A DNA stretch of 64,000 bases, taken from Promethearchaeota archaeon. Lineage in GTDB: Archaea; Asgardarchaeota; Lokiarchaeia; Sigyniarchaeales; SOKP01. The notes under the pieces are model-generated. The model made no database searches, was not told where the DNA came from, and worked only from the letters and a program-made list of their open reading frames with translations. Positions 34,238-35,997 of this stretch are shown one piece after another. Location of the stretch: contig JBHLLT010000015.1 in the NCBI GenBank assembly GCA_048938855.1, positions 1 through 64,000 of the forward strand, in the 5' to 3' direction. Position numbers and translations under genes: made by a program. Position 1 is the stretch's first letter. Every line of letters begins with the position of its first letter.

Positions 34238-34717
34238 ATGAAAATAAGTATAACCTATGAAGAAAAACTTCAAATCGATACTCAGAAGGCTTTTGAACTA
34301 ACACAACAATGGTTAGGAGGACAATATAAGGCGAAGATTAAGAAATCAATACCTCCTACATTTATTGAGGCAAAACAAGGAACAATGTTGACTAACACGG
34401 GTCATGATCCGAATTGGAAAAAGAGAATTACTATTAATTTCTATGCATTGGAAGGAGACCAAACGTTAGTTAGAGTTGAAGCGATTCCCCTTGCCAGAAA
34501 TATTTTTAGAGTAGAAAAACTAAAACAATCTTGGTATAATGGACTATTTTCTCATCTATTCTCACTTTTAAAAACATATGACCAATCCACAAAACATGAA
34601 AAAATCAAAGAAACTAATATTATCGAAGGAACGAAAATTAGATATTGTACATATTGTGGAAATAAAATTGAAGAAAATGTTAAAATATGTCCTAGTTGTG
34701 GTATACAGATAGACTAG
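34238..34717 (+). CDS. Hypothetical protein with C-terminal zinc ribbon
   Basis: YCTYCG...ICPSCG. Confidence 0.75.
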   Translation: MKISITYEEKLQIDTQKAFELTQQWLGGQYKAKIKKSIPPTFIEAKQGTMLTNTGHDPNWKKRITINFYALEGDQTLVRVEAIPLARNIFRVEKLKQSWYNGLFSHLFSLLKTYDQSTKHEKIKETNIIEGTKIRYCTYCGNKIEENVKICPSCGIQID

Positions 34718-35099: not shown

Positions 35100-35462
35100 T
35101 ATAGAAAGAAGGGACGAGAAGTTGCCAATGAATCCCAGAAGGTTTTCATAAGCAAACGGTATTGTTATTTTTCACTTTCATGAAAAAATTACAAAACATT
35201 AAATCATTTTGCGTCATGAAGAGAAATACCATACAATGAATAATTTCTTACTCGTCGGATGGTGTTATCGTTTGATAACCTTACCAATTCTTGCGAATCA
35301 GCCAGATCGAACACCGAATATAAACCAAATGGCTTACATTTTAGTTCAAATTATGCTTTTACACATAATCTCTTTCCATATCGCAACAGATTACCTTGCG
35401 GTGCCAATGCTTTGAGGTAACAATACCTCTTCTCGACGTTCAAACCGTTAGGATTGAACAAT
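35100..35462 (-). ncRNA. Candidate large structured non-coding RNA, family unknown
   Basis: At least 7 local hairpins plus two long-range helices; G-U pairs favour the minus strand; TATA-like TTTAAATA ~25 nt upstream. Confidence 0.6.
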
Positions 35463-35619
35463 ATATGTTTTGAAGGATTCATATTTAAATCACACTATTA
35501 AGGGATTATTATATATTTTTGTCGAAGAAAACAGTTTATGTAATTTTTATGTCGGAGTTTTAAAACTTGGTTTTTTCAACATAAATACGAGTCATAAGAT
35601 AAAAAAAGAAGGAGGAGAT

Positions 35620-35997
35620 TTAGAATGGCCATATATTTATTGTTACGTTCAATAGCGTACTTAGTAACAGAACCACAAGAACATATAACAGAAAAGCTAT
35701 AACAGTTATTACAATTGCACTTAGAAATCCTACATTATGGCTTACACAAATTAGTATCCAAGTTACTATTAAAGCAACTAACCAAGCGACCCAACCTTCT
35801 AAAAACAAAAATACTAAAGCAAAAGTGATAGTAATTAAGAAGGCTGTTAAAAAGACATTACCAAAATTAGTATGTTGTGCTTTACTAAAGAAACTTAAAG
35901 TAAGTTTCAAAAAAATTGTTATTACCAACAGGACTATAAGGTAAAAGACTAAAAACCACATAACTTCTTCAAATGTTAGTAAAATCATTTTATTCAA
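35620..35997 (-). CDS. Small four-TM hypothetical membrane protein
   Basis: Hydrophobic 125-aa ORF. Confidence 0.7.
   Translation of the reverse strand: MNKMILLTFEEVMWFLVFYLIVLLVITIFLKLTLSFFSKAQHTNFGNVFLTAFLITITFALVFLFLEGWVAWLVALIVTWILICVSHNVGFLSAIVITVIAFLLYVLVVLLLSTLLNVTINIWPF

Follow-up and report, generated by a model that had tools for sequence, protein, structure and literature searches.

A 64,000-nucleotide (nt) stretch of DNA from a Promethearchaeota archaeon (contig JBHLLT010000015.1, positions 1 to 64,000), referred to here as the window, raises a simple question at positions 35100-35462: what is encoded by a densely folded segment that holds no convincing protein? The segment lies between a 159-amino-acid (aa) zinc-ribbon open reading frame (ORF) on the plus strand (34238-34717) and a 125-aa ORF on the minus strand (35620-35997), and the ORFs that cross it are short and unconvincing. 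Its G+C content is 33-35%, compared with 23-27% in the flanking spacers; the genome, designated G000 (3.95 Mb in 93 contigs, 97% complete), has 30% G+C. The segment very probably encodes a real, stand-alone structured noncoding RNA (ncRNA) of an undescribed family. The comparisons show an RNA of no known kind that is separately promoted, structurally constrained, non-coding and accessory, and that combines a closed base with exchangeable heads.

The minus strand of 35100-35462 folds with a predicted energy of -114 kcal/mol, compared with -76 ± 5 kcal/mol for 100 dinucleotide shuffles, none of which folds as well (z = -7.55); the plus strand reaches -83 kcal/mol (z = -3.6). Full-length homologues with 70-94% identity occur in 14 genomes of the genus, and RNAalifold on 15 full-length homologues in this range gives a consensus of 104 pairs, 28 with compensatory changes. 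When the set is widened to 37 full-length sequences, the most distant of which is 65% identical to the window, 96.2% of the alignment cells pair and 29 pairs covary, by our own tally on an RNAalifold consensus; slid controls give 31-45% pairing and 6-15 covarying pairs. The RNA strand is fixed as the minus strand by the many pairs that, read on it, are G-U or change from G-U to A-U or G-C and back. Comparison of reading frames finds no ORF that stays open across the homologues of the RNA gene.

The architecture consists of a constant base on which a large interior domain is mounted (all coordinates are on the minus strand). The RNA opens with a 5' hairpin (35438-35459, RNA positions 1-22), an optional part that most members keep. 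The base is closed by P1, in which CGAGAAG (35429-35435) pairs with CUUCUCG (35115-35121), the latter being the anchor of covariance model R1; P1 is invariant in the genus, and in genus g17 both of its sides change in concert (UUGAGAAG with CUUCUCAA). P2 pairs GGUAUUGUU (35419-35427) with AACAAUACC (35158-35166); two of its pairs show compensatory G-C to A-U changes among the 15 homologues, and three covary over 20 cells in the 37 sequences. P3 (35405-35414 with 35192-35201) shows C-G to U-A and U-A to A-U changes, and is followed by a hairpin of the form ACC-GNRA-GGU (35393-35402), the loop of which is GCAA in the window and GUAA or GAAA in relatives. On the 3' side are P11 (35169-35188), a hairpin of variable sequence in which RNA positions 310-312 and 328-330 covary from U-A to C-G, and P12 (35122-35155), a long 3' hairpin that abuts the 3' strand of P1 and has the loop UUCU here and UUCG in many relatives. 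P1, P2 and P12 meet at a three-way junction, joined by linkers of 0-2 nt.

The interior domain, termed the L-core (35211-35383, 173 nt, RNA positions 77-249), is a multi-helix junction made of P4 to P10. P4, a 4x4 internal loop (AUAU opposite AYGA) and P5 lead into it, and five hairpins, P6 to P10, branch off beyond them; a GUAAAA hexaloop and a GNRA loop are conserved within it. The homologue consensus contains the hairpin GCUGAUUC-GCAA-GAAUUGGU at 35302-35283, and others at about 35370-35349, 35339-35318 and 35279-35264. The alignment of the L-core (A5; 27 sequences, 54 pairs) has 95.3% of its cells paired and 24 pairs changed on both sides; none of 500 shuffles matches this, and sliding the partners by 1-3 columns lowers pairing to 34-46% and the number of such pairs to 5-11. 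GNRA and UUCG tetraloops are abundant in the family, a feature typical of self-folding RNAs. No conserved unpaired stretch is longer than about 6 nt, and a pseudoknot scan over all column pairs yields 3-bp candidates only, all of them overlapping local hairpins. Two further structural proposals were rejected: reading the 4x4 loop as a K-turn would break the covarying pairs of the next helix, and a triplex of the 3' tail with P1 would have no loop for the turn and would involve a tail that varies in relatives.

The RNA is preceded by a promoter block of its own (35460-35526). Its TATA-like box, TTTAAATA (35489-35482), occupies positions -30 to -23; the box lies upstream of all 18 aligned homologues, two of which have TTTATATA instead. 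In 52 distinct members of the family a TATA-like box, which reads TTTAAATA in nearly all, stands at a fixed distance before the RNA start, and the start is a purine in most of them. The purine that opens the 5' hairpin is found 30 nt past the first base of the box, which in the window places the start at G 35459. Three further boxes, TTAATAG, TAATAA and CGAC-A5 (35490-35526), are conserved in the 18 aligned homologues and could be the binding site of a dedicated transcription factor; the CGAC-A5 box is doubled in some relatives. The combined promoter pattern occurs in G000 at the RNA locus only, and the promoter block accompanies the RNA gene in at least five genomic contexts. One genome, G013, lacks the 5' hairpin yet retains the spacer from the TATA box to the start, so that transcription would begin at P1; this supports the promoter reading. 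At the other end, a C-rich tract followed by a T-run (35105-35114) comes after P1, as it does in all members, and is probably an archaeal transcription stop. With its end placed within the T-run, the gene would span 35105-35459, or about 355 nt. Because the downstream gene is convergent in most contexts, including the window, the RNA is not a leader.

The initial annotation of the window, made from its sequence, had anticipated much of this. It had described a densely folded stretch without a protein, richer in G+C than neighbouring spacers and assigned by its G-U wobbles to the minus strand, with the TTTAAATA box upstream and a pyrimidine run at the 3' end; each of these features is borne out, and two of the tests that it had named, folding against shuffled sequence and covariation among homologues, give the values reported above. 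Its two long-range pairings are P1 and P2 of the homologue consensus, and nearly all of its hairpins recur among the 15 homologues. The hairpin proposed at 35177-35220 does not: in its place the consensus has the 3' strand of P3 and the shorter hairpin P11. A direct repeat of CAUUGGCA near both ends likewise proved not to be conserved, since relatives have CAUUUGCA or CAUUAGCA in place of the 3' copy.

No described class of RNA accounts for the locus. A search of the whole window with Rfam 15 at gathering score gives no match; at E ≤ 10 the RNA region returns chance matches only, and the same threshold applied to 18 loci with diverse members finds nothing at the RNA, so that neither the window copy nor 17 homologues match a family. 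The chance matches seen in these searches were to mir-4875, a CRISPR repeat, GIR1 and a histone stem-loop. ARAGORN predicts neither tRNA nor tmRNA in the window. Neither a box C/D pair nor an ACA tail, as expected for C/D or H/ACA guide small RNAs (sRNAs), is conserved in the alignment, and no snoRNA family matches. No published description of the RNA was found in the literature.

Members of the family differ in what is mounted on the base. The promoter, 5' hairpin, P1, P2, P3, P11 and P12 are the constant parts, and the interior differs, giving size classes of 231, 241, 260, 273-276, 293-297, 329-334, 350-358, 669 and 737-740 nt. In the short forms the L-core is replaced by four unrelated hairpins with UUCG-type loops, termed the S-core. 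The two types can be combined: the 669-nt forms carry S-type cores together with the L-core on a single base, locus L078 has both core types, and in some genomes S-type and L-type genes occupy separate loci. The 740-nt forms (L089, L090, L105 and L113) contain three complete units behind one promoter, each unit with its own 5' hairpin; in L089, the form compared in this way, the single-unit RNA of L081 shares 92% identity with unit 1 and 65% with unit 3 over full length. Locus L087 (G058:C76) has two complete genes 512 nt apart. The 5' hairpin is doubled in the 293-297-nt forms and is missing in G013, in G061 (L086) and in L084 (from G049). The 231-nt form, L082 (G069:C3:121547-121839), retains GCGAUAUGAAAAG and the closing CGC of the L-core with most of the domain deleted; it folds weakly (-31 kcal/mol), has low R1 and R2 scores and may be a decaying copy.

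The distribution of the family was followed with three covariance models, R1 (the 3' hairpin and the 3' strand of P1), R2 (the promoter, the 5' hairpin and the 5' strands of P1 and P2) and R3 (the L-core); the counts are samples, and "not found" refers to the genomes searched. The window RNA carries the R1, R2 and R3 elements and so belongs to this Lokiarchaeal family of modular ncRNAs; its scores of 87 bits (R1), 143.3 bits (R2) and 191.4 bits (R3, matching 35209-35384) are high by construction, as the window is a seed member, and independent members in other genomes score 40-199 bits. In the genus of the window R1 is found in 38 of 54 species genomes, the 38th match being marginal (E = 0.02), and R2 in 37 of 54. 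R1 also matches 13 of 42 genomes of the sister genus g14 and one of six of genus g17, and none of the 19 searched from the three other families of the order. The L-core model matches 27 of 49 genomes in genus g1, 10 of 40 in genus g14 and none of 61 others sampled at the level of the class.

All 35 matches of a pattern search in the species-genome collection are metagenome-assembled genomes (MAGs) of Asgard archaea (Promethearchaeota/Promethearchaeia), some of them with the submitter labels Hod-, Hermod- or Thorarchaeota, and that search gave no match outside Asgard MAGs. A metagenome scan matched three DNA contigs and no transcript-like record. Two pattern scans of IMG/VR viral contigs gave three and zero matches, and all three failed both models and are attributed to chance. 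Among the genomes searched, the family is thus confined to one family of Lokiarchaeia (Promethearchaeia). Within the genus of the window the RNA was not found in 17 of the 54 genomes, several of which are rated 100% complete, which marks it as an accessory, lineage-restricted gene.

The genes beside the RNA change from locus to locus. The 125-aa ORF upstream of it in the window is predicted to have about four membrane helices and matches no Pfam family; the RNA follows this ORF in 15 loci close to that of the window, twice with another gene between them. In another 16 loci, from two genera and of both S- and L-type, the RNA comes directly after a gene for a family-B DNA polymerase (PolB) of about 680-780 aa (PF00136, E = 5.6e-27), with a convergent 180-aa membrane ORF beyond the RNA; this ORF and the 125-aa membrane ORF are unrelated. 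The copy of the polymerase in G000 (87% identity) lies outside the window, at G000:C49:384116-386149 (L092). Its motif A is intact (DFSSMYPS), and it has HGIVDS at the site where the catalytic motif YGDTDS is expected, so that it looks like an inactivated PolB2-type protein. PolB belongs to the core genes of the genus, with 85-87% identity throughout, genomes without the RNA included. In G000 and three genomes that lack the RNA, PolB is followed by a clean spacer of about 100 nt. An obligate link between the two was therefore rejected: PolB needs no adjacent RNA gene, and the RNA is not tied to PolB.

Still other neighbours occur at the remaining loci. A generic class I S-adenosylmethionine-dependent methyltransferase ORF of about 190-240 aa adjoins the RNA in L080, L086, L101 and L127, in three arrangements, and has an N-terminal membrane segment in L080 only. 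It was rejected as a constant partner, since its best homologue in G000 has 33% identity (29 bits), and the adjacency is treated as a coincidence. Pfam searches of the neighbours find no TnpB, IscB, Cas, transposase or reverse-transcriptase domain, and clustering of the neighbouring ORFs from about 45 loci finds no IscB, TnpB, Cas or transposase gene.

How the RNA acts can be judged with less assurance. The evidence leans modestly towards an RNA of this identity that works in trans as a folded molecule, and not as an antisense, leader or guide RNA. Action of this kind is suggested by conserved single strands of a few nucleotides, by the lack of a complementary target, by the lack of a downstream gene for it to control and by the lack of a guide-like end; an antisense target search of both strands of its own genome gives nothing better than chance, the best match being 18 nt long and falling in a variable, A/T-rich part of the RNA. 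So worded, the statement also embraces an RNA-only assembly, a ribozyme and a ligand sensor, all considered below. The preferred mechanism, a scaffold or binding RNA, is proposed tentatively and is itself more doubtful than probable. In it, the closed and presumably nuclease-resistant base would be a stability or handle element, and the upper domain or domains would provide a working surface for binding a partner (most likely a protein), either in a ribonucleoprotein (RNP) or so as to titrate the protein; tandem and multi-core versions would multiply the binding surface and thereby raise valency.

Several considerations weigh against the preferred explanation as a whole. The expression of the RNA, its 5' and 3' ends and its abundance are deduced from signals in the sequence. 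It has no constant neighbour gene across loci, so that adjacency points to no partner. No pseudoknot or long-range tertiary pair is supported, and the compactness of the L-core is therefore itself a supposition. The presence of two unrelated cores on one base means either that the base is the functional part or that members differ in role. Finally, the patchy occurrence shows the RNA to be dispensable, which suits an accessory scaffold and other accessory roles equally well.

The alternatives that would assign the RNA to a familiar kind have little to recommend them. A very divergent universal RNA (RNase P RNA, an RNase MRP-like RNA or signal recognition particle [SRP] RNA) would explain the closed P1, the multi-domain plan and the size: in G000 the RNase P and SRP RNAs are about 300-330 nt and, like the RNA in the window, follow an A/T-rich TATA-like box (TTTATAAA precedes the RNase P RNA gene). 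However, both are encoded elsewhere in G000, a good RNase P RNA (RF00373) at C20:5911-6235 with 134.9 bits and a full-length SRP RNA (RF01857) at C70:155534-155862 (L006) with 72.4 bits, and at E ≤ 10 none of the models for RNase P, MRP and SRP RNAs matches the RNA locus; identity with either was rejected on these grounds. The SRP RNA scores below the gathering score of 96.5 bits, and standard annotation would miss it. Unlike the universal, essential RNase P and SRP RNAs, the RNA here is missing from complete sister genomes; it also lacks their conserved P4-type and helix-8-type motifs, and inspection of the alignment by eye found no CR-I- or CR-V-like motif (consensus GGAAAGUCC; ACAGAA...GGCUUA) kept across it. 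This explanation has next to no probability. Hardly more credible is the suggestion of the initial annotation that the RNA is a non-autonomous omega/HEARO-like element, that is, a guide RNA of an IscB/TnpB mobile element. Omega and HEARO RNAs (RF02033 and relatives) are similarly ornate, a few hundred nt long and able to lie in intergenic DNA, but no IscB, TnpB, Cas or transposase gene adjoins the RNA in the window or in 40-odd related loci, the Rfam HEARO model does not match, the two ends are the most conserved parts of the RNA and pair with each other, leaving no variable guide segment, and the scans of IMG/VR viral contigs did not find it. The copy-number search that the initial annotation had proposed found a single copy in G000. 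Of its overall interpretation, the mobile-element part was thus abandoned, and what stands is a stand-alone ncRNA of about 360 nt outside RNase P, SRP and the other known classes, with its own promoter and stop, a convergent downstream gene and covariation. It is also very unlikely that the RNA is a cis element or base-pairing regulator, either the 3' untranslated region of the upstream 125-aa gene or an antisense sRNA. In 15 related loci the four-helix ORF does precede the RNA on its strand; against this, the RNA is preceded at a fixed distance by an invariant promoter of its own, more than 20 other loci have the cassette behind PolB or beside different genes, ORF and RNA are separated by another gene in two, and there is neither a long conserved single strand nor a complementary target in the genome.

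The other alternatives accept a new folded RNA that acts in trans and differ in what the fold does. An RNA-only quaternary assembly, held together by A-minor loop-helix or kissing contacts and with the multi-unit forms as covalent versions, is unlikely. OLE, ROOL and GOLLD oligomerize with themselves in the absence of protein, OLE as a dimer and ROOL and GOLLD as cages (PMC12286853). The RNA in the window is comparably ornate, closed and tetraloop-rich, the GNRA type of its loops is conserved while their sequence varies (GCAA, GUAA, GAAA), and tandem three-unit transcripts are predicted. On the other hand, no conserved self-complementary loop is seen; a palindromic CAAUGCAUUG in P3 is lost as a palindrome in divergent members, and P3 covaries as a helix within one molecule; and 355 nt is well below the sizes of ROOL (about 580 nt) and GOLLD (about 800 nt). 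More generally, OLE (RF01071), ROOL (RF03087), GOLLD (RF01998) and the raiA motif resemble the RNA here in being stand-alone, highly structured and covarying RNAs of several hundred nt, with many tetraloops, a patchy, lineage-restricted occurrence and no known function at discovery. Their models give no match at E ≤ 10, and the RNA here is shorter, has an archaeal (Asgard) host and, unlike them, places unrelated cores on a constant base and repeats whole units in tandem. OLE has a small membrane protein as partner; the small four-helix ORF lies upstream of the RNA here in 15 loci, not constantly. Improbable, too, is a ribozyme with the L-core as its catalytic domain, for example for RNA cleavage or ligation. 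The compact multi-way junction and the invariant nucleotides of its junctions and internal loops (AUC, AAG, AUU and the 4x4 loop) would fit, and RNase P and the group I and II introns typically have large closed architectures; however, many members lack the L-core and carry the unrelated four-hairpin core on the same base, sister species do without the RNA, none of the known ribozyme models matches and no processing site or substrate is evident. A trans-acting ligand sensor, in which the L-core would be a metabolite or ion aptamer that sequesters or reports its ligand, is a distinctly improbable reading. A multi-helix junction of about 170 nt with highly conserved junction nucleotides recalls the large lysine and cobalamin riboswitch aptamers, but the RNA has neither an expression platform nor a same-strand gene downstream, no riboswitch family matches it, and in 150 genomes at the class level the L-core never occurs in a 5' leader, being confined to this RNA family.

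A structured RNA acting in trans, with a bound partner as its tentative mode of action, remains the preferred reading, and a wider picture can be drawn from it, although a rather speculative one. The family may represent a new class of Asgard (Loki-type) RNA, a plug-in platform whose domains are swapped, stacked or arrayed in tandem, which would serve as the core of an RNP yet to be described or as a protein-free assembly, and whose ancestral position would be after the apparently inactivated PolB2-like gene. If that position is ancestral, it may point to a connection with DNA replication or repair.

To our knowledge, large structured and covarying RNAs of no known function are rare, and almost all of those known are bacterial. 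The stable RNAs of archaea are otherwise rRNA, tRNA, RNase P RNA, SRP RNA and guide sRNAs, a short list that the new family extends in the closest prokaryotic relatives of eukaryotes. As one base carries different cores and tandem units, the family is a natural experiment in the recombination of RNA domains, and more than 50 natural variants are at hand for structural and partner studies. Its dispensability and narrow distribution make a core cellular machine unlikely; if a partner protein or an activity is found, the RNA would represent a new RNP or RNA machine in the lineage leading to eukaryotic cells.

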